From an uncultured Flavobacteriaceae bacterium (lineage in GTDB: Bacteria > Bacteroidota > Bacteroidia > Flavobacteriales > Flavobacteriaceae): a stretch of 64,000 bases of DNA. Below are positions 3,000 to 62,916 of this stretch, one piece after another; position 1 is the stretch's first letter; each line of letters begins with the position of its first letter. Both the position numbers and the translations under genes were made by a program. Location of the stretch: contig CAYXAZ010000001.1 of assembly GCA_964463085.1 (NCBI GenBank), positions 21,906 to 85,905 on the forward strand. Reading direction: 5' to 3'. A model generated the notes under the pieces. That model was not told the origin of the DNA. It saw nothing but the letters and a program-made list of their open reading frames with translations, and made no database searches.

Positions 3000-3102
3000 G
3001 TGTTTATATTATTTTATGAAATCGGTCATCCCGATAGCTATCGGGACTGTTCGCTATTAGTCATTCCCTTAGGTGTGAAAAATAGTAACATGCTCGTTTC
3101 AT
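3000..3102 (-). repeat. Start-codon-adjacent element, copy 1, containing an 18-bp palindrome at 3029-3046
   Basis: Matches 4583-4692, 16545-16632 and 52327-52430; 14-bp direct repeat tttcatgtgtttat at 2994-3007 and 3097-3110. Confidence 0.85.
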
Positions 3103-4582: not shown

Positions 4583-4692
4583 GTGTTTATATTTATTATT
4601 TTTCAAAGGTTCCCGAGGCTTCGGGACTGTTCGCTATTCATCATTTCTTTGGATGATATCCCGAGACTTCGGGATTAGCATGCTCGTTTCAT
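4583..4692 (-). repeat. Start-codon-adjacent element, copy 2, containing two 16-bp palindromes (4611-4626, 4659-4674)
   Basis: Shares ctgttcgctatt..tcatt and agcatgctcgtttcat with the other copies; abuts the SusD ATG. Confidence 0.85.
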
Positions 4693-4715: not shown

Positions 4716-7700
4716 TTAAAATCCTAAATTTATACCTAAAGTAAAGGTTCTGGGAATTGGATATTCGCCTCTGGCACTTGAATTAGAGCCAACTTCAGGA
4801 TCTAGTTCCTTATATCTAGACCACGTTTTAACATTTTGACCTTGCACATATATCCTAAAATTGTTAATTCCGATCTTTTCTGTAATATCATTTGGAAGAT
4901 TATAGGCCAAGGTTATATTTCTTAGCTTGATAAATGATCCATCTTCTAAAAATCTTGTTGAGGGTTCCCCTCCGGTACCATTACCTGCAATATATCTTGG
5001 AACATCTGTTATGTCTCCCGGTTGCTGCCACCTGTCTAAAGCTTCAGCGGATTGGTTTCTAGGAAATCTTGAACCATCACTAACATAAGCTCTGGCTGAG
5101 TGCCTGAATATTTCATTCCCATAATTAAAGAAGAACATGGTTGATAATGTGAAGTTTTTGTAGGTAAAATCATTGGATAAACTGCCAAAAAAGTCAGGAT
5201 TAGGATTGCCCACAATTACTCTATCGGCATCACCGAAATTAGTTACTATATTATTGTCTGCATCATACCAAAGTGGTGCACCATTAGCAGGGTCTACTCC
5301 AGCCCATCTCGGCATATACCAAGAATAAATAGCTTCTCCTTCTTTTATAATCGTATTTGCCCTAAATGCGGTACTCCCTAAAGATCCAATTATTTCTATA
5401 TCATCGGGTAAATCTGTAACAACATTTTCATTAAATGAGATATTAAAATTGGTATTCCATTTAAAATTATCGGTTTCAATATTTTTTGTGCTTAATGAAA
5501 ATTCCCAGCCTGTGTTTTCCATTGCTCCTATATTTGATGGAACAGTATTGAAACCGGAAGTTAAACTGATAGGAAGATTAAGTAACATATCTGATACTTC
5601 TCTTTTATAATATTCTGCTGTTATTTGAATTCGATTATCAAACAATGCTAGATCTAAAGCAATGTCAAACTGCTTATTTCTTTCCCATCCTAAATCAGGA
5701 TTTCCTATTTCTGAAGGAAAACTTCCTGTATATGTACCTCCATTAGTATTATAGGTAGCTCCGTTAAAACCGTATAGTCTTCTCCAGTCATATTCTCCAA
5801 ATTTTTGATTACCTGATGTACCATAACTACCTCTCAATTTAAGGTTGCTAATTAATTTACTATCACTTAACCACTTGGCATTTGAAATAATATAGCCTCC
5901 TCCAACAGACCAAAATGTTCCGAATCGGGTATCGGTTCCAAAACGAGATTCACCATCTCTTCGTATACTTCCGTCTAAGAATAATGTGCTTTTATAGCTA
6001 TAATTCAATCTCCCGAATAATCCCCAGATGGCTGATTCAACAATATCTCCAGATGCTTCTAATATTTCCGGACCTGCATTTACTGCGTTAAGGTCATCAC
6101 TTGCAAAGCCAGTAACACGAATGCCAATAAATTCTTCTTTATGCTTTTGAAACTCATTACCTGCAAGCAATGTAAAGTCATGATCTTCGCCAACAGTAAG
6201 ATCATAAGTTAGTGTATTGGTCACAACATAATCAAAATTATTGGTTGAAAAGTCTCTTAATTCTGCCGGAGTTGGTGTACCGGTAGCTATAGCATTAAAA
6301 TATAATTGTGAAAATCGTTCTCTTTCACGAATATCAATATAATCTATACCGAAGCTATTATTGAATTTTAGGTTAGGTAGTATTTTATAATTGGCATACA
6401 GATTTGTAATGACTCTATTCGTTCTAGTTTCATTAAAATTCAGGTTTGCATACGCAATTGGGTGATTTCCGCTTGAGACTCCACTTGGGATATCAAAATT
6501 ATATCCGGTACCAAAATCTTCGCCATTAGCAATTTGTTCATCAGTAGCATATATTCTCATAGTTGGAGGCATAAAAAGCCCTCCGTATAGGGGTTCAGAT
6601 GTATTTGACTGTCCAAATCTACTATGTTGTATATTTCTTGTTAAACTCATTTTAACGCCTAAATCTAATTTTTTAGTAGCAGCATAATCAACATTGAATT
6701 TTGCAGATATTCTTTCAAAATCAGTGGTAATGGCTATCCCATCTTGATTCAAATAGCCTAAAGAAGCATAAAAATTAAGTTTTTCACTACCTCCGGAAAC
6801 AGAGAAATCTATTTTATTGGTTTTTGCTGTTCTTAAAACTTCATCTAACCAATCAATATCTGTAGCTGTTGAACTTAAAGGAAAATAATCTGAAGTCCCT
6901 GGAATGTCAGGGTTGCGCCCGGCATTGATAACACCTTCTCTCATCAATTCAACATATTCGCTAGCATTTAAGACTCTAAAATCGCTAAAATTTTCCCAAT
7001 CAGAAAAACCGGTTTGAGTATTTAAAATGAATCTTGCTTTGCCGGATTTTCCTTTTTTAGTGGTTATTATAACTACCCCATTGGCTCCTCTAGAACCATA
7101 AATAGAAGCCGAAGCAGCATCTTTTAAAATAGAAATAGATTCGATATCATTAGGGTTAATTGTTGATAGCGGATTATATGTTTGGGTAGTCCTATCTAAA
7201 TTTCCGGTATTTATAGGTACACCATCAATTACATATAAAGGACTTTCACCGGCTCCTATAGAACCTGTACCTCTAATTTTAATATCCATACCAGCTCCCG
7301 GTTGTCCATTATCCGGAGAAACAGCTACACCGGCTGACACCCCTTGTAATGCTTGATCAATACTAGTAGATAGCGTTTCATTAATCTCACTTGCACTTAC
7401 TGTAGAAACTGCCCCGGTTATTTTTTTCCTACTACTTGTTCCATAGGCAATAACAATAACTTCATCTAAGGAATCCGTAGCAGGATCAAGAAGTATATTA
7501 AGCTGTGATTGGTTGTCTACCTGAACTTCTTTTGTTGTATATCCCAGATACGAGACTACTAAAATAGCATTTGGTCCTGAAACTTTAATAGAAAAAATTC
7601 CATCAAAATCAGTAGTTACCCCGTTGGTTGTTCCTTTTTCGATAATATTGACACCGGGGAGCGGATTACCAAGTTCATCTTTTATTATTCCGTTTACCTC

Positions 7701-25529: not shown

Positions 25530-25564
25530 ACCCCGCTCCCGATAACTATCGGGATTAGTGGGGT
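25530..25564. repeat. Hairpin carrying an 18-bp palindrome in its loop
   Basis: accccgct / agtggggt outer stem enclosing tcccgataactatcggga (25537-25554). Confidence 0.7.
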
Positions 25565-44791: not shown

Positions 44792-45451
44792 ATGAAACCG
44801 TATTTTGTAAAAACGCCAAATTTAGTTCCAATTTTATATCAGCATCAAATTTGGAGTTTTTCATCTAAACAGAAAAACATCTATCTTACTTTTGATGATG
44901 GTCCTACTCCAAAAATTACCGATTGGGTCTTAGATACCTTACAGCATTATAATGCCAGTGCAACTTTTTTTTGTATTGGTAAAAATATTGAAGCACATCC
45001 AACTATTTTTAAGAGAATTATTGATAATGGTCACTCTATAGGTAATCATACTTATGATCATCTTAACGGATGGAAAACCTCTAATGAAGAATATCTAAGT
45101 TCTGTTTTAAAAACAGAGAGGCTCATTGAAAAAGATCAAATCACAAATCGTAAATCACAAATCGTAAATTGTAAATTATTCCGTCCTCCTTACGGAAAGA
45201 TTAAATCTTCACAAACAAAATCGTTACAAAAATTAGGCTATAAAATTATTATGTGGTCTGTTTTAAGTGCAGATTTTGACATGACCATTGATGCTGAAAA
45301 ATGTGTTGATAATGTAATTAAAAATACAAAAAACGGCAGTGTTATTGTTTTTCATGATAGTGAAAAAGCATTTGAAAAGTTGAAAGTAGTATTACCTAAA
45401 GTTTTAGCACATTTTAGTAAAAAAGGATATAGCTTTAAGAGGATAAGGTAA
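44792..45451 (+). CDS. Polysaccharide deacetylase (CE4/NodB-like)
   Basis: LTFDDGP, GNHTYDH, LFRPPYG and IVFHD motifs; heptamer-repeat insertion at 45138-45177. Confidence 0.93.
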   Translation: MKPYFVKTPNLVPILYQHQIWSFSSKQKNIYLTFDDGPTPKITDWVLDTLQHYNASATFFCIGKNIEAHPTIFKRIIDNGHSIGNHTYDHLNGWKTSNEEYLSSVLKTERLIEKDQITNRKSQIVNCKLFRPPYGKIKSSQTKSLQKLGYKIIMWSVLSADFDMTIDAEKCVDNVIKNTKNGSVIVFHDSEKAFEKLKVVLPKVLAHFSKKGYSFKRIR

Positions 45452-45459
45452 GTATAAGT

Positions 45460-45540
45460 TGTCATTCCTGCAAAAGCAGGAATCTCATGAATTAAAGCAG
45501 AATTATTATTGAGTAGATTCCTGCTTTTGCAGGAATGACA
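45460..45540. mobile_element. Inverted pair of TGTC-ended REP-like units (REPIN/MITE-like)
   Basis: Perfect 26-bp inverted repeats tgtcattcctgcaaaagcaggaatct at 45460-45485 and 45515-45540. Confidence 0.85.
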
Positions 45541-45543
45541 GAA

Positions 45544-45784
45544 TAGTTTAATCGAAAAGAATTCCCCTAGGCTCTGCCTCGGGGTTTCCGATTTACCTCT
45601 CCTTGGGAGAGGTCGGAACTGCTTTTCGCAGTTCCGGGTGAGGTAAAATACAAAATTTCGATTTTTGGTCCTAAGACCAAAGCTTGTGCTCAGCTTGACT
45701 GGATATGATCCCGATAGCTATCGGGAGGCGAAATATCCCTATGGCTCTGTCTCGGGGATAGTCGATTTCAAGAAATTTTTTATT
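45544..45784. mobile_element. Non-coding element bounded by two direct-orientation hairpins, with nested palindromes inside
   Basis: Hairpins at ~45561-45584 and ~45734-45757; internal cctctccttgggagagg..ggtgagg unit with a loop insert (45596-45643) and an 18-bp palindrome (45709-45726). Confidence 0.6.
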
Positions 45785-45785
45785 A

Positions 45786-45873
45786 GAGATTCTTCCCCGA
45801 GTACTCGGGGTTCCTCCTTCTGAATGACAGCACAATGTCATTCTGAGTGAAGTATAACGAAGCGAAGAATCTC
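45786..45873. repeat. Tail-to-tail pair of TGTC-type REP units, one carrying ccccgagtactcgggg
   Basis: gagattcttc...gaatgaca (45786-45829) is the inverted counterpart of tgtcattctgag...gaagaatctc (45836-45873). Confidence 0.75.
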
Positions 45874-46001
45874 AATACATTGAGAGAAATAGGCACTTTC
45901 AGAAGTAGTCTAGTTTTTAAAAAATTCAATTAATTAATCCTGATAATTTATAATGATTGTTAGAATTTTTTGTTTTTAGAGTTGTTTTTGTACATTAGTA
46001 A

Positions 46002-46658
46002 ATGTTTTTACACAAGCATCCATATCATCCCTTTATTCCTAAAAATGCTACCAAGTTAATTGTTGGCACCTTACCTCCTCCCCGATTTTCACAAGATAAG
46101 CTATTAGAAGGTGATGTTGATTTTTGTTATGGTAGTCGTAACGGATTATTATGGCCTGTTTTAGATAAAATTTTTGATTTAGACTTACTATTTGAAACCT
46201 CAGAAGAAACAATTACACAACGTAAAGATTTTTTAATAAATAACAATATTGGTATTTGTGATATTGTTGATAGCTGTAAACGAGAAAAAATTGATGCTTC
46301 AGATTTAGGAATGAAAGATGTTAAACTTCGTGATCTAGTCAATTATCTAAAACAATATCCTAAAATAGACACTTTACTTTTTATGGGAGGAAATTCCAAA
46401 AACGGACCAGAATATTTTTTTAGAAGACATCTAAAAGAATATAAATTAAGATTAGAACTTATCATAAATAAAGTACCTAGAATACATCAATTCAATTTAG
46501 AAGATAAAATTATAAAAACCGTTTCATTAACTGCACCATCAGGATCAGCTAATAGAGCTATAGGAAGCATGTATGTATATAAAATCTTAAAACAACAAAA
46601 CCCTAATTTCAATACTTTTAATTTTAGAGTTTTACAGTATACAGAACATTTTACCTAA
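46002..46658 (+). CDS. Uracil-DNA glycosylase superfamily protein
   Basis: LIVGTLPP, FCYGS..G and LTAPSGSAN motifs. Confidence 0.8.
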   Translation: MFLHKHPYHPFIPKNATKLIVGTLPPPRFSQDKLLEGDVDFCYGSRNGLLWPVLDKIFDLDLLFETSEETITQRKDFLINNNIGICDIVDSCKREKIDASDLGMKDVKLRDLVNYLKQYPKIDTLLFMGGNSKNGPEYFFRRHLKEYKLRLELIINKVPRIHQFNLEDKIIKTVSLTAPSGSANRAIGSMYVYKILKQQNPNFNTFNFRVLQYTEHFT

Positions 46659-46828
46659 GGCACTGTTAAGAAATAAATAGTGCAGAATTAGCGAAGTAAT
46701 TTTATTCTTTTTCAAGGCAATCCCGAAGCTTCGGGATCAAGCATAGCATCTCTATAGTTCAAAATTTTAACGCAGTAAAAGGGCAAAAGAACAAGCTAAT
46801 TCTGCACTATTTATTTCTTAACAGTGCC
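46659..46828. mobile_element. 170-bp MITE with 34-bp perfect terminal inverted repeats and a TAA target duplication
   Basis: TIR ggcactgttaagaaataaatagtgcagaattagc at 46659-46692 and 46795-46828; TAA on both sides, the left one being the stop codon; palindrome at 46721-46736. Confidence 0.9.
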
Positions 46829-52326: not shown

Positions 52327-52430
52327 GTGAAACACCCATAACTAAATCTTGATACACAAGGGAATGACTATATGGATGTTCCATGTGACTCCCGATAGCT
52401 ATCGGGATAAAAAACAATGAATATAGACAC
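52327..52430 (+). repeat. Start-codon-adjacent element, degenerate copy 4, with an 18-bp palindrome at 52390-52407
   Basis: gtgaaac...gaatgacta...catgtgac...tatagacac followed by ATGAAA. Confidence 0.7.
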
Positions 52431-57899: not shown

Positions 57900-60629
57900 C
57901 TACAATTCGAATACTTTATCAATTACTCTTTGATGTCTTCTTTTAAACCTAGTACTAGAACCCGCTGCAGGAACCGAATAAAATGGTCTAGAAGCAACTT
58001 TCAATTTTACCAAATCAAAACGCAGTAATAAATAGCTCCAAGCGCCCATATTTTGGGGTTCTTCTTGTGCCCAAACATAATTTTTTACATTTTTATATCT
58101 GTCAATTACCCTTTGTAATTTTTCTTTATGTAATGGGAATAATTGTTCTATCCTAACTAATGCCACGTCTTCTCTTTCTAATTTTTCTCGTTCGGCTAAT
58201 AAATCATAATAGAATTTACCAGTACAAAATACTAATTTTTTAACCTTAGTAGGACTAATTGTATCGTCTATTACTTCTTGAAATTCTCCATTAGAAAACT
58301 CATTTAAACTTGATACTACTTTTGGATGACGTAGTAAACTTTTAGGTGTAAATACAATTAAAGGTTTTCTAAAATCACGTTTTAATTGTCGGCGTAACAA
58401 ATGAAAAAAATTAGCCGGGGTAGTACAATCGGCAACGGTCATATTATCATTTGCACATAATTGTAAATAACGTTCCATTCTAGCTGAAGAGTGCTCAGAA
58501 CCTTGACCTTCATATCCATGTGGTAACAATACAACTATTCCGTTTTGTAATTTCCATTTGTCCTCAGCAGCAGACATATATTGATCGAAAATAATTTGAG
58601 CTCCGTTACTAAAATCACCAAATTGTGCTTCCCAAATGGTCAATGTATTAGGATTCGCCATCGCATAACCATAATCAAAACCAAGTACGCCATATTCTGA
58701 CAGCAATGAATTATAAATATTCATTTGTCCCTTATTATCAGGGTTTGTATTCAGTAAATTGATACGTTCTTCAGAGATTTCATCTCGTAATATGGCATGA
58801 CGATGACTAAAGGTACCACGTTCAACATCTTGACCGGAAATTCGAATATTGTATCCTTCTTCTAATAATGAACCATAAGCTAATGTTTCCGCCAAGCCCC
58901 AATCAATAGTATCGGTTTCTATCATTTTGGCTCTACCAGACAGAATACGTTCTGCTTTTCGTAAAAATTTTACGCCTTCAGGCACAGTTGATACTACTTT
59001 TGCAATGTTTTTTAGATGCTGTTCTGCATATGTTGTATTAACGGGTAACAACATATCTTTTACATCTTTACGTGAAAACCCTTTCCATGTACTTTCCATA
59101 AAGGGCTTCAGACTTGAAGTAGTATCCCTTTTAGACATCTCATATTGATTTTCTAGCATGATCTTAAAATCAGCTATGATCTTCTTTTTATAAGCTTCAT
59201 CTATGACACCTTCATCTATTAAACGTTGTGCATAAATATCTCTGGGATTATCGTGTTTAGCTATCGCTTTATACAGGTTTGGTTGTGTAAAACGAGGTTC
59301 ATCACCTTCATTATGACCATATTTTCTATACCCTAATAAATCGATAAATACATCGCGTTTGAATTTCATTCTAAAGTCAAGCGCCATCTCTACAGCATGT
59401 ACTACTGCTTCGGCATCATCAGCATTTACATGAAGTACCGGAGATAATGTTACTTTTCCAATATCTGTACAATAGGTGCTTGACCTTGCATCTAAATAAT
59501 TGGTTGTAAATCCAATTTGATTATTAACCACAATATGAATGGTGCCTCCTGTTGAATATCCTTTAAGTTTACTCATTTGAATTACTTCATATACTACGCC
59601 TTGTCCTGCAATTGCTGCATCTCCATGAACAAGAATAGGTAGTATTTTTGAGGAATCTCCTTTGTATTTTCTATCAATTTTAGCTCGTGTGATTCCTTCT
59701 GCAACAGCATCAACTGCTTCTAAATGTGAAGGATTTGGCACTAAATTCATTTTTATATCCTTACCATTCTGATAGGTTTTATTTAAGCTCAAGCCTAAAT
59801 GATATTTTACATCACCATCTATATCATCATCATCAAAATCTTTCCCTTCAAATTCACTAAAAAGCTCTCTTACCGGTTTTCTAAATATATTTATTAAGGT
59901 ATTCAAACGCCCTCTATGCGCCATCCCGATAACACATTCTTCTAATTGATATTTATCAACAGCATTAAAAAGAGTCATACTAATTGCGGGAATCAATGTT
60001 TCTCCGCCTTCTAAAGAAAAACGCTTCTGTCCTACATATTTGGTTTGTAAGAATTGCTCAAAAGTTACAGCTTGGTTTAATTTTGAGAAAAGATGCTTTT
60101 TATCCTCAATAGAATAGTTAGGGTGATTATTATTTTTATGCAATTTTTCTTGCCACCATTTTATTTCTTCCGGCTGACGAATATACATATATTCAATACC
60201 AATAGAATCACAATACACTTCTTCTAAATGCGCTACAATTTCTTTTAATGTTGTACTACCTATTCCCAACACTTCACCTGCATCAAAAACCGTATCTAGA
60301 TCTTCTTTTGAAAGCCCAAAATTTTCTATAGCCAACGTTGGAGTGTACTTTCTACGTTCTCTTACAGGATTGGTTTTTGTAAATAGATGTCCTCTGGAAC
60401 GGTATCCATTCATTAGTTCAATAACCTGAAACTCTTTATGTACATGCCCTGGAATTTCAGATGTAGATTGTTCTTCTCCATCTAAAGAATAATCTGTATT
60501 AGCTAAATCATAACCTTGAAAAAAACTTCTCCAGCTTGGCTCTACCGCATCAGGATCTACTAAGTATTTATGATATAAATCTTCTATAAAACCAGTATGT
60601 GCTGCATTTAAAAAGGAAAATCTATCCAT
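57900..60629 (-). CDS. sucA: 2-oxoglutarate dehydrogenase E1
   Basis: GMAHRGRLN, HGDAAIAGQG and WEAQFGDF motifs. Confidence 0.98.
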   Translation of the reverse strand: MDRFSFLNAAHTGFIEDLYHKYLVDPDAVEPSWRSFFQGYDLANTDYSLDGEEQSTSEIPGHVHKEFQVIELMNGYRSRGHLFTKTNPVRERRKYTPTLAIENFGLSKEDLDTVFDAGEVLGIGSTTLKEIVAHLEEVYCDSIGIEYMYIRQPEEIKWWQEKLHKNNNHPNYSIEDKKHLFSKLNQAVTFEQFLQTKYVGQKRFSLEGGETLIPAISMTLFNAVDKYQLEECVIGMAHRGRLNTLINIFRKPVRELFSEFEGKDFDDDDIDGDVKYHLGLSLNKTYQNGKDIKMNLVPNPSHLEAVDAVAEGITRAKIDRKYKGDSSKILPILVHGDAAIAGQGVVYEVIQMSKLKGYSTGGTIHIVVNNQIGFTTNYLDARSSTYCTDIGKVTLSPVLHVNADDAEAVVHAVEMALDFRMKFKRDVFIDLLGYRKYGHNEGDEPRFTQPNLYKAIAKHDNPRDIYAQRLIDEGVIDEAYKKKIIADFKIMLENQYEMSKRDTTSSLKPFMESTWKGFSRKDVKDMLLPVNTTYAEQHLKNIAKVVSTVPEGVKFLRKAERILSGRAKMIETDTIDWGLAETLAYGSLLEEGYNIRISGQDVERGTFSHRHAILRDEISEERINLLNTNPDNKGQMNIYNSLLSEYGVLGFDYGYAMANPNTLTIWEAQFGDFSNGAQIIFDQYMSAAEDKWKLQNGIVVLLPHGYEGQGSEHSSARMERYLQLCANDNMTVADCTTPANFFHLLRRQLKRDFRKPLIVFTPKSLLRHPKVVSSLNEFSNGEFQEVIDDTISPTKVKKLVFCTGKFYYDLLAEREKLEREDVALVRIEQLFPLHKEKLQRVIDRYKNVKNYVWAQEEPQNMGAWSYLLLRFDLVKLKVASRPFYSVPAAGSSTRFKRRHQRVIDKVFEL

Positions 60630-60776
60630 TTATTTACCTATTTGTAACTTTAAAAAACATGAAAAACAAAAGTACAATTTTTATCATTATAGTATCATTA
60701 AATTTAGATTGTTATTGATAAATTTTATTTAGATAAAAAAAATTAATTTAGTACTTGTAGAGTATCAAAAAACATT

Positions 60777-60784
60777 TATATTTG
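60777..60784 (+). promoter_or_regulatory. -7 promoter box, probably the ancestral tRNA-Asn promoter
   Basis: TATATTTG with a TTG upstream; lies just before the duplicated tRNA leader. Confidence 0.75.
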
Positions 60785-60797
60785 CACTCCGAAAAGG

Positions 60798-60848
60798 AAA
60801 ATAAATTCCTCCTTAGCTCATCCCGATAGCTATCGGGAGGTTAGAGCA
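60798..60848 (+). pseudogene. Duplicated leader and 5' half of tRNA-Asn with an 18-bp palindrome replacing GTT of the D-loop
   Basis: 60798-60820 is identical to 61155-61177; then tcccgatagctatcggga in place of gtt; then ggttagagca as at 61181-61190. Confidence 0.92.
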
Positions 60849-60870
60849 AAGAAGAAAAGTTCTTTAAATT

Positions 60871-61161
60871 ATGCAATCATGTGTGTATATAATTTATTCT
60901 AAGCAATTAGATAAGTATTATATAGGAGAAACTTCAGATCTTAAGAATAGACTTGAAGAACATAGAATTAGTTTTTATGAAAATTCTTACACATCTAATG
61001 CGAATGATTGGATTGTATTTTTTAAAATAGTTTGTGAAACAAAAACTCAAGCTATTAAAATTGAAAAGCATATTAAGAGTATGAAAAGTAAAACTTACAT
61101 ACATAATCTTAAGAATTATCCAGAAATTGCAAATAAGTTAAAGGAAAAATATTTAAAATAA
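60871..61161 (+). CDS. Stand-alone GIY-YIG nuclease
   Basis: VYIIYS...YYIGET..L..RL..H and downstream A...EK.IK pattern; 96 aa. Confidence 0.9.
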   Translation: MQSCVYIIYSKQLDKYYIGETSDLKNRLEEHRISFYENSYTSNANDWIVFFKIVCETKTQAIKIEKHIKSMKSKTYIHNLKNYPEIANKLKEKYLK

Positions 61162-61163
61162 AT

Positions 61164-61237
61164 TCCTCCTTAGCTCAGTTGGTTAGAGCATCTGACTGTT
61201 AATCAGAGGGTCCTTGGTTCGAGCCCAAGAGGAGGAG
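61164..61237 (+). tRNA. tRNA-Asn(GTT)
   Basis: Acceptor TCCTCCT/AGGAGGA, anticodon arm tctga-ctGTTaa-tcaga, GGTTCGAGCCC T-arm. Confidence 0.96.
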
Positions 61238-61246
61238 CTTGAAAAC

Positions 61247-61282
61247 AAAAAACCATCCATAATTTATAGTGGATGGTTTTTT
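61247..61282. terminator. Bidirectional intrinsic terminator
   Basis: aaaaaaccatcca / tggatggtttttt. Confidence 0.85.
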
Positions 61283-61308
61283 CATTACTGATTGTTTTGT
61301 AGTTTTTG

Positions 61309-62916
61309 TTATTCTTCTTTAACTGGTTCTTCAGGTTCAGGTTGAACAACTTTAAACTGAGTTCGTCTATTTAACTGATGTTCATCATTACTACATCGTT
61401 TACCATCGGCACAATCATTTACTAATTGTGTTTCACCAAAGCCTTGACTGGTAATTCTACTGGCATCTATACCTTTAGAAATGATATAATCTACAGTAGA
61501 TTTAGCTCTTCTATCAGATAGTCCCATATTATATGAAGCCGGACCTCTAGAATCAGTATGCGATGTTCCTAAAATTTTCATCTCTGGATACGTTTTCATC
61601 ACATCTATCACTTTATCTAATTGCTGAGCTGCATCCTCTCTAATATCCCATTTATCAAAATCAAAGTATATTTTATCTATATTAACCAATACTTCATCAC
61701 CTACTGCTTTAAATTCTGTAGCTAAATCAATATTTTTCTCTAAAGCAGGAGCATCAATGTCATTTACCGTTTTTACTTCTTGTTTTTCAATTAAATATCC
61801 CGGGTTAGTACCTACTAATGTATAAACACTATTACAAGGCACATCAAAACTATAAGTTGCTTCATCTTCATGAGCAGCAGTTATTTGTAATTGATTTCCT
61901 TCACTATCTAATATTGAAACCATAGCGCCAGGTAATAATTCTTGTGTGTCTTTATCTCTAACTATACCTTTTATAGTTTGTAAACAATCAATGAATACTG
62001 CTTCATCTTGATTAAAAGAATAGATATCATCATCTCCTTTTCCTTCTTTTCTATTTGAAGAAAAATACCCTTTACGCTGAGTATCATCTAAAATATAAGC
62101 AAAGTCGTCTTTTGCAGTATTAACAGGCTGATCTAAGTTTATTGGAATAGAAACCGAATTATCAAAAACCTTACTGGCATAAACATCTAACCTACCATAA
62201 CCTTCATGTCCATTTGATGAAAAGTATAAAATATTATCATCACTAATAAACGGAAACATTTCTCTTTCTTTAGTATTAATTCTATCGCCCATATTTTTAG
62301 GCTCACCAAAGGTTCCATCTTTATGGATATCAACTACATAAATATCTGTTTTACCAATAGATTCAGGTCTGTCAGAAATAAAATACAGTTTTGTTTCATC
62401 TTTATTTAAAGTGGGTAATCCTGACTGGTATTCATCACTATTAAACGGTAATTTTTGAACATTAACCCATTCACCAATTCCATTAACAGAAGCCTTGTAT
62501 AATTGAATATTATCAAACCCTTCTTTACTTTTTATAGATTTATCTTTATTATTATAGTTATTTGCACTAAAATATACTGTTTTAAAGTCTTTAGTAAAAG
62601 TAACCATAGCCTCATGCGCTTTTCTATTAACATCACCTTCTAAATTTTTTTTGTTTATAATTTGACCCGTACTATCTATATCGCCAACAAATAAATCTAA
62701 AAAAGGTTGGTCATTTTCATTCCAAACCTGTCTAATAATTCTTATTTTCTCATTCGGTGAAGCGAAAACAATTCTATTATTATTTAAAAAGGCGACTCCA
62801 AAGTCAGCCTGTTTCGTATTAACATTGAGGTTTCTAATACTATGTTTTCCTGGTGTTGTTTGGGCACTAATTAACACTGAAATCAATAGTAAGCATACAA
62901 TAATAATCTTTTTCAT
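61309..62916 (-). CDS. OmpA-family protein with a WD40-like (PD40) beta-propeller
   Basis: LYFISDRP..G.TDIY and LYFSSNGH.G.G.LDVY repeats; IYFDFDKW...SHTDSRG...LSDRRAKS...NRRTQF OmpA domain. Confidence 0.92.
   Translation of the reverse strand: MKKIIIVCLLLISVLISAQTTPGKHSIRNLNVNTKQADFGVAFLNNNRIVFASPNEKIRIIRQVWNENDQPFLDLFVGDIDSTGQIINKKNLEGDVNRKAHEAMVTFTKDFKTVYFSANNYNNKDKSIKSKEGFDNIQLYKASVNGIGEWVNVQKLPFNSDEYQSGLPTLNKDETKLYFISDRPESIGKTDIYVVDIHKDGTFGEPKNMGDRINTKEREMFPFISDDNILYFSSNGHEGYGRLDVYASKVFDNSVSIPINLDQPVNTAKDDFAYILDDTQRKGYFSSNRKEGKGDDDIYSFNQDEAVFIDCLQTIKGIVRDKDTQELLPGAMVSILDSEGNQLQITAAHEDEATYSFDVPCNSVYTLVGTNPGYLIEKQEVKTVNDIDAPALEKNIDLATEFKAVGDEVLVNIDKIYFDFDKWDIREDAAQQLDKVIDVMKTYPEMKILGTSHTDSRGPASYNMGLSDRRAKSTVDYIISKGIDASRITSQGFGETQLVNDCADGKRCSNDEHQLNRRTQFKVVQPEPEEPVKEE

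Follow-up and report, generated by a model that had tools for sequence, protein, structure and literature searches.

The stretch analysed here (the window, 64,000 nt of contig CAYXAZ010000001.1 from an uncultured Flavobacteriaceae bacterium) is low-GC DNA (31.6% GC), and its nearest public relative is the metagenome-assembled genome (MAG) D96SM.bin.25. In the window, a gene for a small GIY-YIG nuclease lies inside the transcription unit of a tRNA-Asn gene, together with a perfect palindrome (PAL) and a truncated copy of the same tRNA gene (Table 1). The cassette consists of the nuclease open reading frame (ORF), its cognate PAL hairpin and, on either side of the ORF, the two copies of a 36-bp direct duplication (9 leader nt and tRNA positions 1-27). 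Of these, the copy nearer the promoter is dead: it stops at position 27, diverges from the tRNA thereafter and has PAL in place of positions 15-17. The distal duplicate is the working tRNA. The promoter, repeats, palindrome, ORF and tRNA had all been described in an earlier reading of the letters alone (the sequence-only reading), and every one of them is present where that reading had placed it.

Table 1. Features of the tRNA-Asn unit and solo copies of PAL in the window
Feature	Positions	Strand	Remarks
Predicted tRNA-Asn promoter, Bacteroidetes -33/-7 type	60755-60784	+	TTG 60755-60757, 19 nt, -7 box TATATTTG 60777-60784
Dead copy, left arm: 9 nt of leader plus tRNA-Asn positions 1-14	60798-60820	+	23 nt, 100% identical to 61155-61177
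PAL, perfect 18-bp palindrome TCCCGATAGCTATCGGGA	60821-60838	.	Replaces GTT, tRNA positions 15-17, D-loop
Dead copy, right arm: tRNA-Asn positions 18-27, GGTTAGAGCA	60839-60848	+	Identical to 61181-61190
Cassette 5' leader AAGAAGAAAAGTTCTTTAAATT, 22 nt, A-rich	60849-60870	+	Abuts the start codon
GIY-YIG nuclease ORF, 96 aa, single domain	60871-61161	+	Pfam PF01541, E = 7.7e-14
Second copy of the 9-nt leader	61155-61163	+	Abuts the intact tRNA; empty-site leader ...AAAAGGAAAATAAAT in L194
Intact tRNA-Asn(GTT)	61164-61238	+	ARAGORN; Rfam RF00005, 69 bits
Terminator-like hairpin, 13-bp stem, 10-nt loop, T run	61247-61282	+	Inverted repeat, ends the unit
Solo PAL, intergenic	3029-3046	.	18-mer search
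Solo PAL, one mismatch, intergenic	25537-25554	.	Nested in the loop of another hairpin (ACCCCGC...GTGGGGT)
Solo PAL within a hairpin-repeat cluster, intergenic	45709-45726	.	Flanked by GGATAT/ATATCC
Solo PAL, intergenic	52390-52407	.	Missing from the matching spacer of the closest relative, L228

Folded as DNA, PAL forms a hairpin nested within the D-stem (-10.5 kcal/mol, z = -2.7), and it lies upstream of the ORF at 32 nt from the start codon. The cassette leader is conserved in two related loci (L002 and L217; L numbers denote loci) and is kept 5' of the tRNA in the ORF-deleted relics of L008 and L020. The stop codon of the ORF (TAA, 61159-61161) falls inside the second leader copy. The spacer that holds the cassette is bounded by sucA (57900-60629) and a gene for an OmpA/PD40 protein (61309-62916), both on the minus strand; sucB lies on the sucA side as well. 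As the sequence-only reading had remarked, there is no integrase and no terminal inverted repeat (TIR): no recombinase or integrase was found among the ORFs neighbouring the cassette, and a repeat search of the locus found no TIRs flanking the ORF. Target-site duplications were not found around PAL or the ORF either. A DNA transposon or miniature inverted-repeat transposable element was rejected, as TIRs are absent at the ORF and PAL substitutes for 3-5 nt with no target bases duplicated. An integrase element that targets tRNA genes was also rejected, as the neighbouring ORFs hold no recombinase and the repeat here is the 5' part of the tRNA, not its 3' end.

Bacteroidetes promoters follow a consensus of the TTG / TAnnTTTG type, and the promoter in Table 1 was predicted on this basis. 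On the plus strand between 60600 and 61240, the TAnnTTTG motif occurs a single time, as the TATATTTG box, which precedes dead copy, ORF and tRNA alike; relatives that lack the cassette (L194, L196, L198, L201 and L216) have a TATATTTGCA box 21-27 nt 5' of tRNA-Asn. Judged from the consensus, the motif would be the tRNA-Asn promoter. This motif search was used because a sigma-70 promoter scan of the locus is uninformative for Bacteroidetes. The simple terminator scan was uninformative too, and missed the terminator-like hairpin because its loop exceeds 8 nt. With a single tRNA promoter ahead of all three, transcription would pass the dead copy, the ORF and the tRNA, and the nuclease would therefore be expressed together with the tRNA.

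The protein was matched by Pfam PF01541 (GIY-YIG) over residues 3-74 with 52 bits (cut-off 22.6). Across 30 homologues, Y6, Y17, R27, H31 and E65 are invariant and N79 is nearly so, which is the GIY-YIG catalytic set; we take its residue numbering to coincide with that of I-TevI. These homologues also have the subfamily motif IEKHIKSMKS..YI.NL..YPE in common. The AlphaFold model (predicted local distance difference test score 92.8) matches the GIY-YIG domains of BH0048, Slx1, I-TevI and UvrC. By motifs, catalytic residues and alpha/beta fold, the protein is a member of the GIY-YIG superfamily. It is a single domain with a short helical tail; Pfam and AlphaFold gave no second or DNA-binding domain, and homologues are mostly 92-103 aa long. 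Because a single-sequence search of PDB gave noise only, a profile was needed for the structure search. By profile, the closest solved relatives are the UPF0213 proteins BH0048 and EF2693 (E ~1e-4, cd10456-type); by fold, Slx1-type nuclease domains come next, and the catalytic domains of I-TevI and UvrC match more weakly. In addition, hhalign gave 98.6% probability over the full length to small GIY-YIG proteins, three of whose four sequences come from candidate phyla radiation (CPR) bacteria and one from a Bacteroidota MAG (L176). An exhaustive profile search (E <= 1e-10) put the family at 1,177 clusters at 50% identity, and public records name its proteins only 'GIY-YIG nuclease family protein' or 'putative endonuclease'. 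No relative of the family was found in 50,697 phage records, and an Ssn-like query against plasmid records returned YazA-like genes only, so that neither set of records was of use in placing the family.

The sequence-only reading had invoked homing endonucleases, and on this point it is corrected: the features of the protein place it, as far as sequence can tell, with hairpin-associated single-domain GIY-YIG enzymes and not with classical homing endonucleases. A classical free-standing homing endonuclease would cut the duplex tRNA gene in cassette-free genomes, repair would copy the cassette, and PAL would be an immunity scar. In its favour, NCBIfam, PADLOC and PHROGs returned homing-endonuclease-like matches, all of them sub-threshold and left aside when the protein was classified (TIGR01453, group I intron endonuclease: 17.9 bits, cut-off 56), and T4 SegB is reported to be a GIY-YIG homing enzyme that sits in a tRNA cluster and drives segmental amplification (PMC13096335). 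However, a protein of 96 aa without a DNA-binding domain, which resembles structure-directed nucleases of the UPF0213/Slx1 kind more than I-TevI, does not fit such an enzyme, and we regard homing of this kind as unlikely.

A homologue scan with one genome per species gave 71 loci encoding homologues, 68 of them in Bacteroidota (Flavobacteriales, Cytophagales, Chitinophagales, Sphingobacteriales, Bacteroidales and Saprospiraceae). A tRNA gene on the same strand lies within 400 nt of the ORF at 51 of these 68 loci (Asn 30, Met 12, Leu 4, Val 3, Thr 1, Arg 1), and several of the remaining loci end at contig ends. The core of PAL, scored as CCGATAGCTATCGG with at most 2 mismatches within 130 nt downstream or 60 nt upstream of the ORF, was found at 57/68 loci (84%). 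Elsewhere in the same 68 loci there are 3 copies in 190.6 kb (0.016 per kb), so the core is enriched ~280-fold beside nuclease ORFs. The link between the palindrome and the nuclease family that the sequence-only reading had proposed is thus borne out, and most homologues do have the tRNA or palindrome context. The locus belongs to a Bacteroidota-wide family in which each nuclease clade is tied to one tRNA species, and in the plan of this family the ORF has an intact tRNA on one side and, on the other, a partial tRNA copy with PAL in a loop.

The commoner form of this plan, present at 53 loci, reads intact tRNA, terminator, ORF, partial 3' tRNA copy with PAL and second terminator copy. The form in the window (partial 5' copy with PAL, ORF, intact tRNA) is its rarer mirror image, found at 4 loci, and recurs independently at tRNA-Met (L026) and tRNA-Leu (L066). 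The 5'-half duplication claimed earlier is thus real here, although it is the minority arrangement. The same holds for the proposal that the element hijacks a tRNA promoter, which suits the window, where the ORF stands between the sole recognisable promoter and the tRNA, but not the downstream-type copies, whose ORFs are positioned behind the tRNA terminator. At five downstream-type loci (L003, L033, L047, L053 and L055), the ORF runs into the partial tRNA copy and stops at the TAG of PAL (TCC CGA TAG). As ORFs stop in PAL at these loci and in the duplicated leader in the window, the cassette itself seems to lack a stop codon.

In every mappable case, PAL lies within the partial tRNA copy, where it substitutes for 3-5 nt at a loop position with no target duplication, 7-25 nt from the ORF-side end of the copy. 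The D, anticodon, variable and T loops are all hit. The nucleotides replaced are GTT or AGT in the D-loop, ATAAT in the anticodon loop, GGTCC in the variable loop, and GAGCC, AAGTC, AGT or GCC in the T-loop. The 14-bp core of PAL is nearly invariant; its two outer pairs vary yet remain complementary (TC/GA, CC/GG, TG/CA, TT/AA, CT/AG), and the central change from ATAGCTAT to AAAGCTTT is symmetric too. The AAAGCTTT variant belongs to one protein clade, on both Met and Asn genes. A strict specificity of each protein for a PAL variant through the outer pairs was ruled out, as the dead copies of L016 and L036 hold two variants each. For a classical homing endonuclease, it could be expected that PAL is confined to the dead copy and that protein clades track tRNA species across orders, as they do. 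Against it, PAL lies in the D, variable or T loop depending on the locus for tRNA-Asn alone, the intact tRNA adjoining the ORF would stay cleavable, and a scar need be neither a 14-bp palindromic core common to the phylum nor present at hundreds of non-tRNA sites. Outside Bacteroidota, CPR bacteria at L069 (tRNA-Lys) and L070 (tRNA-Arg) follow the same logic of dead copy, hairpin, ORF and tRNA with unrelated hairpins. L069 (2400-2830, Magasanikbacteria) has the leader plus tRNA-Lys positions 1-21, a 48-nt imperfect hairpin, GAGCAG, the ORF and the intact tRNA-Lys; L070 (2330-2830, Daviesbacteria) has tRNA-Arg, the ORF and a hairpin-bearing 3' fragment.

The closest known system is Ssn, a family whose member SsnA from N. 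meningitidis, 94 aa long with a single GIY-YIG domain, is a site-specific nuclease of single-stranded DNA (ssDNA) (Chenal et al., Nat Commun 2025, PMC11893778). NTS, a hairpin repeat with hundreds of copies in the genome, borders the ssnA gene; SsnA binds NTS as ssDNA only, cuts a few nt upstream and does not bind RNA. Thousands of Ssn homologues (CDD cd10448) have hairpin motifs of their own at their borders, and the authors liken NTS-ssnA-NTS to insertion sequences and to repetitive extragenic palindromes with their associated tyrosine transposases (REP/RAYT), raising a 'mobile or domesticated' reading (PMC11893778). The family described here resembles Ssn in that the proteins are ~94-96 aa with one GIY-YIG domain and without a DNA-binding domain, a repeat able to form a hairpin borders the gene and has further copies scattered through the genome, most of them intergenic, and the association between nuclease and repeat is conserved across large phylogenetic distances. 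SRM-like GTCATTCCTGCAAAAGCAGGAATC repeats also occur in the window. The family differs in that PAL is a perfect unoriented 18-bp palindrome, whereas NTS is an oriented semi-palindrome with a conserved 5' flank, and in that PAL sits inside a partial tRNA-gene duplicate with loop nucleotides replaced. Moreover, the Bacteroidota genes are multi-copy, specialised for tRNA species and present in tandem arrays, with empty and relic sites; the text of PMC11893778 contains neither tRNA nor Bacteroidota (0 occurrences). On sequence grounds, the family looks like an undescribed, tRNA-gene-dwelling branch of hairpin-associated small GIY-YIG nucleases.

More than one family ORF is present at 15 loci, and neighbouring units are 100% identical in at least 5 of them (L005, L009, L013, L029 and L033), which are therefore fresh tandem amplifications. 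In arrays, PAL is on both sides of the ORF. Several paralogues also occupy different tRNA genes of one genome (L028/L030 and L055/L067). The alternation of hairpin-bearing repeats and ORFs in arrays, and a hairpin that would always be co-transcribed with the ORF, could suit a toxin/antidote pair in which the transcribed dead-tRNA/PAL hairpin acts as an RNA decoy or antitoxin for a toxic nuclease. However, the failure of SsnA to bind RNA (PMC11893778) speaks against such a pair, solo PALs remote from any ORF would be left unexplained, and no match to known toxin-antitoxin or defence families was found beyond weak hits; we consider this explanation highly improbable.

To compare filled and empty sites, the sucA-linked tRNA-Asn locus was obtained from 36 relatives. 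In ten genomes (L194, L196, L198, L199, L201, L202, L212, L213, L216 and L226) the site is empty, with promoter, leader and tRNA-Asn contiguous; SucA is 87% identical in L194, 82% in L196 and 80% in L198. The site is filled in four, namely the window, L192 (contig of L001; SucA 96% identical), L195 (contig of L002; 85%) and the distant L217 (68%), and the distribution is patchy. The cassette at tRNA-Asn is thus an insertion and not the ancestral arrangement, in line with the sequence-only reading, which had described the nuclease as inserted. L001 and L002, with ORFs 97% and 83% identical at the amino acid level, have the same layout as the window, a structure that is therefore inherited or shared, and point mutations in L002 affect both the dead copy and the palindrome. 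In L217 the order is dead copy, ORF, dead copy, dead copy, tRNA, with PAL at the same D-loop position in each dead copy. Relics that have lost the ORF and retain the cassette leader were found in L008 and L020, where the dead copy and PAL are also present, and in dead copies 2 and 3 of L217. The cassette has been gained, lost, amplified and decayed among relatives. Patchy empty and filled alleles at one locus (10 empty, 4 filled) would also be produced by classical homing.

In three further relatives (L193, L197 and L200), a dead tRNA-Asn 5' copy carries a different 20-bp palindrome, CCTGCCTGCCGGCAGGCAGG, and no ORF. It sits between tRNA positions 9 and 10 with no bases lost (reverse-complement coordinates ~190-320) and is dispersed too, with 7 copies in the fetched loci. 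CCTGCCTGCCGGCAGGCAGG might point to another nuclease/hairpin family, or to a relic that has no ORF.

The ratio of nonsynonymous to synonymous divergence (dN/dS) of the ORF is 0.12-0.25, from which the nuclease gene is judged to be under purifying selection. Synonymous divergence of the ORF is 0.11 from L001 and 0.41 from L002, compared with 0.55 and 1.11 for the adjacent sucA; with its small counts, this hints at transfer by recombination and would also speak for homing. The spacer, cassette and tRNA (60630-61238) differ by ~3% from L001, and the first 750 nt of sucA (59880-60629) by ~10% from L192; the low-divergence stretch could be a recombination tract that arrived with the cassette.

The purifying selection could also mean that the nuclease is a domesticated host ssDNase that restricts incoming PAL-bearing ssDNA or processes hairpins and R-loops of tRNA genes, with the dead copy and PAL as a regulatory or processing element. 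Different species have the insertion in common, PAL avoids coding DNA as other REP-type repeats do, and SsnA modulates natural transformation in Neisseria, where its authors discuss domestication (PMC11893778). However, close relatives lack the cassette at the same locus, ORF-deleted relics and decayed palindromes occur, and there are both tandem arrays of identical units and several paralogues per genome at different tRNAs; we find domestication quite unlikely.

Beyond the cassette, PAL is dispersed. The window has five copies of the 18-mer, four of them exact and one with a single mismatch, where 100 shuffles gave an expectation of 0.00, so chance is excluded. In the matching spacer of L228 the PAL at 52390 is absent, and no insertion boundaries could be read there because the whole spacer is divergent. 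A scan with the exact 18-mer gave at least 120 stretches, in which 130 copies were sampled. All 80 titled stretches among the matches listed are from Bacteroidota, and 6 of the 120 stretches listed encode the nuclease family within up to 8 kb. The association is thus strongly one-way, because nearly all nuclease genes have PAL and few PALs have a nuclease gene. Long open frames contain 22% of PAL copies, compared with 82% of random positions. Many solo copies lie in short tandem repeats or terminator loops, and apparent 3-5 nt 'duplications' at solo copies in heptamer repeats are explained equally well by a 3-nt replacement. The idea that PAL enters the loops of any hairpin was given up in view of the weak excess among solo copies, and is retained for tRNA copies alone.

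With ~95% of the sampled copies solo, PAL might be a REP-like repeat that is spread by an unrelated enzyme and accumulates by coincidence in non-functional, hairpin-rich dead tRNA copies. The CCTGCCTGCCGGCAGGCAGG palindrome in an ORF-less dead copy would agree with this, as would the presence of two outer-pair variants in one dead copy (L016 and L036). Against it stand the 84% occupancy within 130 nt compared with the background density, the fixed distance between PAL and the ORF junction, and an experimental precedent for a nuclease/hairpin pair in the same protein class (PMC11893778). Furthermore, just 7/130 sampled copies lie within 300 nt of a tRNA and 6/130 within 150 nt of a family GIY-YIG ORF. 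As so few sampled copies are near tRNAs, PAL is not generally drawn to tRNA genes. We consider such a coincidence very unlikely.

The intergenic stretch 45451-46002 of the window is a nest of at least 6 GC-rich hairpin repeats, including the solo PAL at 45709. It holds two inverted SRM-like GTCATTCCTGCAAAAGCAGGAATC copies, at 45461-45484 (+) and 45516-45539 (-), which resemble the NTS/SRM motif of PMC11893778, as well as CCCCGAGTACTCGGGG (45795) and GTCATTCTGAG...GAAGAATC (45837). The nest looks like a bacterial interspersed mosaic element and suggests a second, canonical Ssn-type nuclease elsewhere in the genome. A second family of micro-palindromes, ATCCCGA(nnnn)TCGGGAT, lies intergenically at 4658-4675 and 46720-46737; its CCCGA/TCGGG arms are those of PAL and its centre is different. 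At 6472-6978 of the Bacteroidota MAG locus L176, a generic Ssn/UPF0213-like GIY-YIG ORF of another subfamily lies 97 nt from an exact PAL, which may be shared between GIY-YIG subfamilies or be there by chance.

The region 3' of tRNA-Asn also varies. In the window, 61239-61300 holds the terminator and leads to the OmpA/PD40 gene; relatives (L001 2868-4314, L002 and L194) differ, and in the closest of them the tRNA is followed by TTAGTAATGGCAAGCC... and by an excisionase-like helix-turn-helix ORF (4006-4314 of L001). In the relatives an element has probably integrated at the 3' end of this tRNA-Asn, which would therefore be used from both ends.

Apart from Ssn, four kinds of known systems invite comparison. 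In REP/RAYT, as summarised in PMC11893778 from Nunvar (2010) and Ton-Hoang (2012), a nuclease gene is likewise flanked by its own short palindromic repeat with hundreds of solo intergenic copies, and recognition of hairpins in ssDNA is the proposed mechanism; the enzyme, however, has the unrelated HUH/Y1 fold, and RAYTs are usually single-copy and untied to tRNA genes and are not known to duplicate a host-gene target. The Seg enzymes of T4-like phages (SegB in the tRNA gene cluster, PMC13096335) share a GIY-YIG core, a site among tRNA genes, spread or amplification by break-induced recombination and a patchy presence in close relatives. Seg proteins differ in exceeding 200 aa with modules that recognise duplex DNA, and are not known to have an associated palindrome or to leave partial tRNA duplicates. 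Seg enzymes are phage-borne as well, a setting in which the phage records yielded no match to the cassette family. Islands and prophages with a tyrosine integrase also insert in tRNA genes, restore the gene by a carried duplicate and leave a direct repeat; the cassette differs in having no integrase, in its size of ~0.36 kb, in duplicating either the 5' or the 3' part of the tRNA, and in the further disruption of the leftover copy by a palindrome. UPF0213 (YazA/YhbQ; PDB 1ZG2 and 1YWL) and Slx1, which acts on branched and hairpin DNA, are the best profile and fold matches and share the small GIY-YIG core, but are just 18-24% identical and have no IEKHIKSMKS..YI.NL..YPE motif. We know of no tRNA or palindrome context for YazA/YhbQ.

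The literature searched holds no description of a GIY-YIG/tRNA-fragment/palindrome architecture, of tRNA embedding, of loop-replacing palindromes or of such arrays. The sequence of PAL was found in none of its relevant papers; the lone text match, to the 12-nt core, came from a paper on glioma with no bearing on the subject. For a nuclease linked to a palindrome, Ssn is already a published precedent (PMC11893778). As far as searched, what is new is that the cassettes live in tRNA genes, with a perfect palindrome that replaces loop nucleotides, are specialised for tRNA species and form tandem arrays, and that the system extends to Bacteroidota and CPR bacteria.

Taken together, the region is in our judgement probably, though by no means securely, a minimal selfish Ssn-like nuclease/hairpin cassette of ~360 bp in the tRNA-Asn transcription unit, and to this extent the core idea of the sequence-only reading (a minimal selfish nuclease at a tRNA gene with a linked palindrome) holds. 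This conclusion is built on the anatomy of the unit, the family-wide association, the empty and decayed sites, the arrays, the purifying selection and the intact catalytic core. What the enzyme acts on and cuts, how the duplication arose and how PAL spreads are inferred, mainly by analogy with SsnA and NTS and from the Slx1-like fold. On this view, the protein would recognise the PAL hairpin on ssDNA and nick close by, and the 7-25 nt between PAL and the ORF junction fit an enzyme that binds a hairpin and cuts beside it. Processing of the tRNA would free the nuclease mRNA. tRNA genes may be preferred substrates because they are heavily transcribed and their single strands fold into hairpins or cloverleaf arms. 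Breaks would be repaired via recombination between the tRNA repeats, which would give rise to the partial duplications and the tandem dead copy-ORF arrays, and the cassette would be copied into empty alleles by homologous recombination. PAL copies would also be seeded in other intergenic DNA.

Several points weigh against a selfish cassette of this kind. PAL disrupts the dead copy and might protect it, as the sequence-only reading proposed, but the intact tRNA beside the ORF is unchanged and has the same loops with no visible protection, and no model tried gives a one-step replacement of 3-5 nt by a fixed palindrome near the ORF junction. Purifying selection and an insertion shared by species with 85% identical SucA would also fit domestication, and the low synonymous divergence of the ORF amounts to just 5 and 16 synonymous differences in an AT-rich gene. 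In addition, 124/130 sampled PAL copies (~95%) have no family gene in their stretch of up to 8 kb, so the reverse association is weak and another spreader is possible; the nesting of solo copies in other hairpins (stems of at least 6 bp) is modest (5.6% compared with 1.0%, p = 2e-4). Circle or Campbell integration, ends-in integration and synthesis-dependent strand annealing with a circular or chromosomal donor were all rejected, as none gives an intact tRNA plus a PAL-bearing short arm in one step, and because these integration models fail we commit to no detailed pathway. More speculatively, the nuclease might put the 18-nt hairpin in place of 3-5 nt in the loop of a DNA hairpin, without a transposase, TIRs or target duplication, and the same chemistry might carry its own gene into tRNA genes; we put this forward as a doubtful but conceivable mechanism.

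Small single-domain GIY-YIG proteins number in the thousands and were uncharacterised before the Ssn work of 2025. The present family is a natural record of enzyme action, with dozens of independent events that each placed an intact tRNA beside a hairpin-bearing truncated copy, and its empty sites, relics and fresh tandem arrays make the gain and loss of the cassette visible. It renders testable both the choice of target (loops of hairpin-forming single strands) and the outcome of repair (replacement of 3-5 nt plus duplication of up to ~90 bp), and offers a way to ask whether such a nuclease is selfish or domesticated. The cassette would represent a new mode of tRNA-gene parasitism without an integrase, and the 18-nt perfect palindrome with its nuclease a new pair for the ssDNA tool uses proposed for Ssn enzymes. 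If the nuclease does insert hairpins, Ssn-type nucleases of Bacteroidota and CPR bacteria would have their natural home in tRNA genes and would be the long-sought agents that spread a class of REP-like palindromes.

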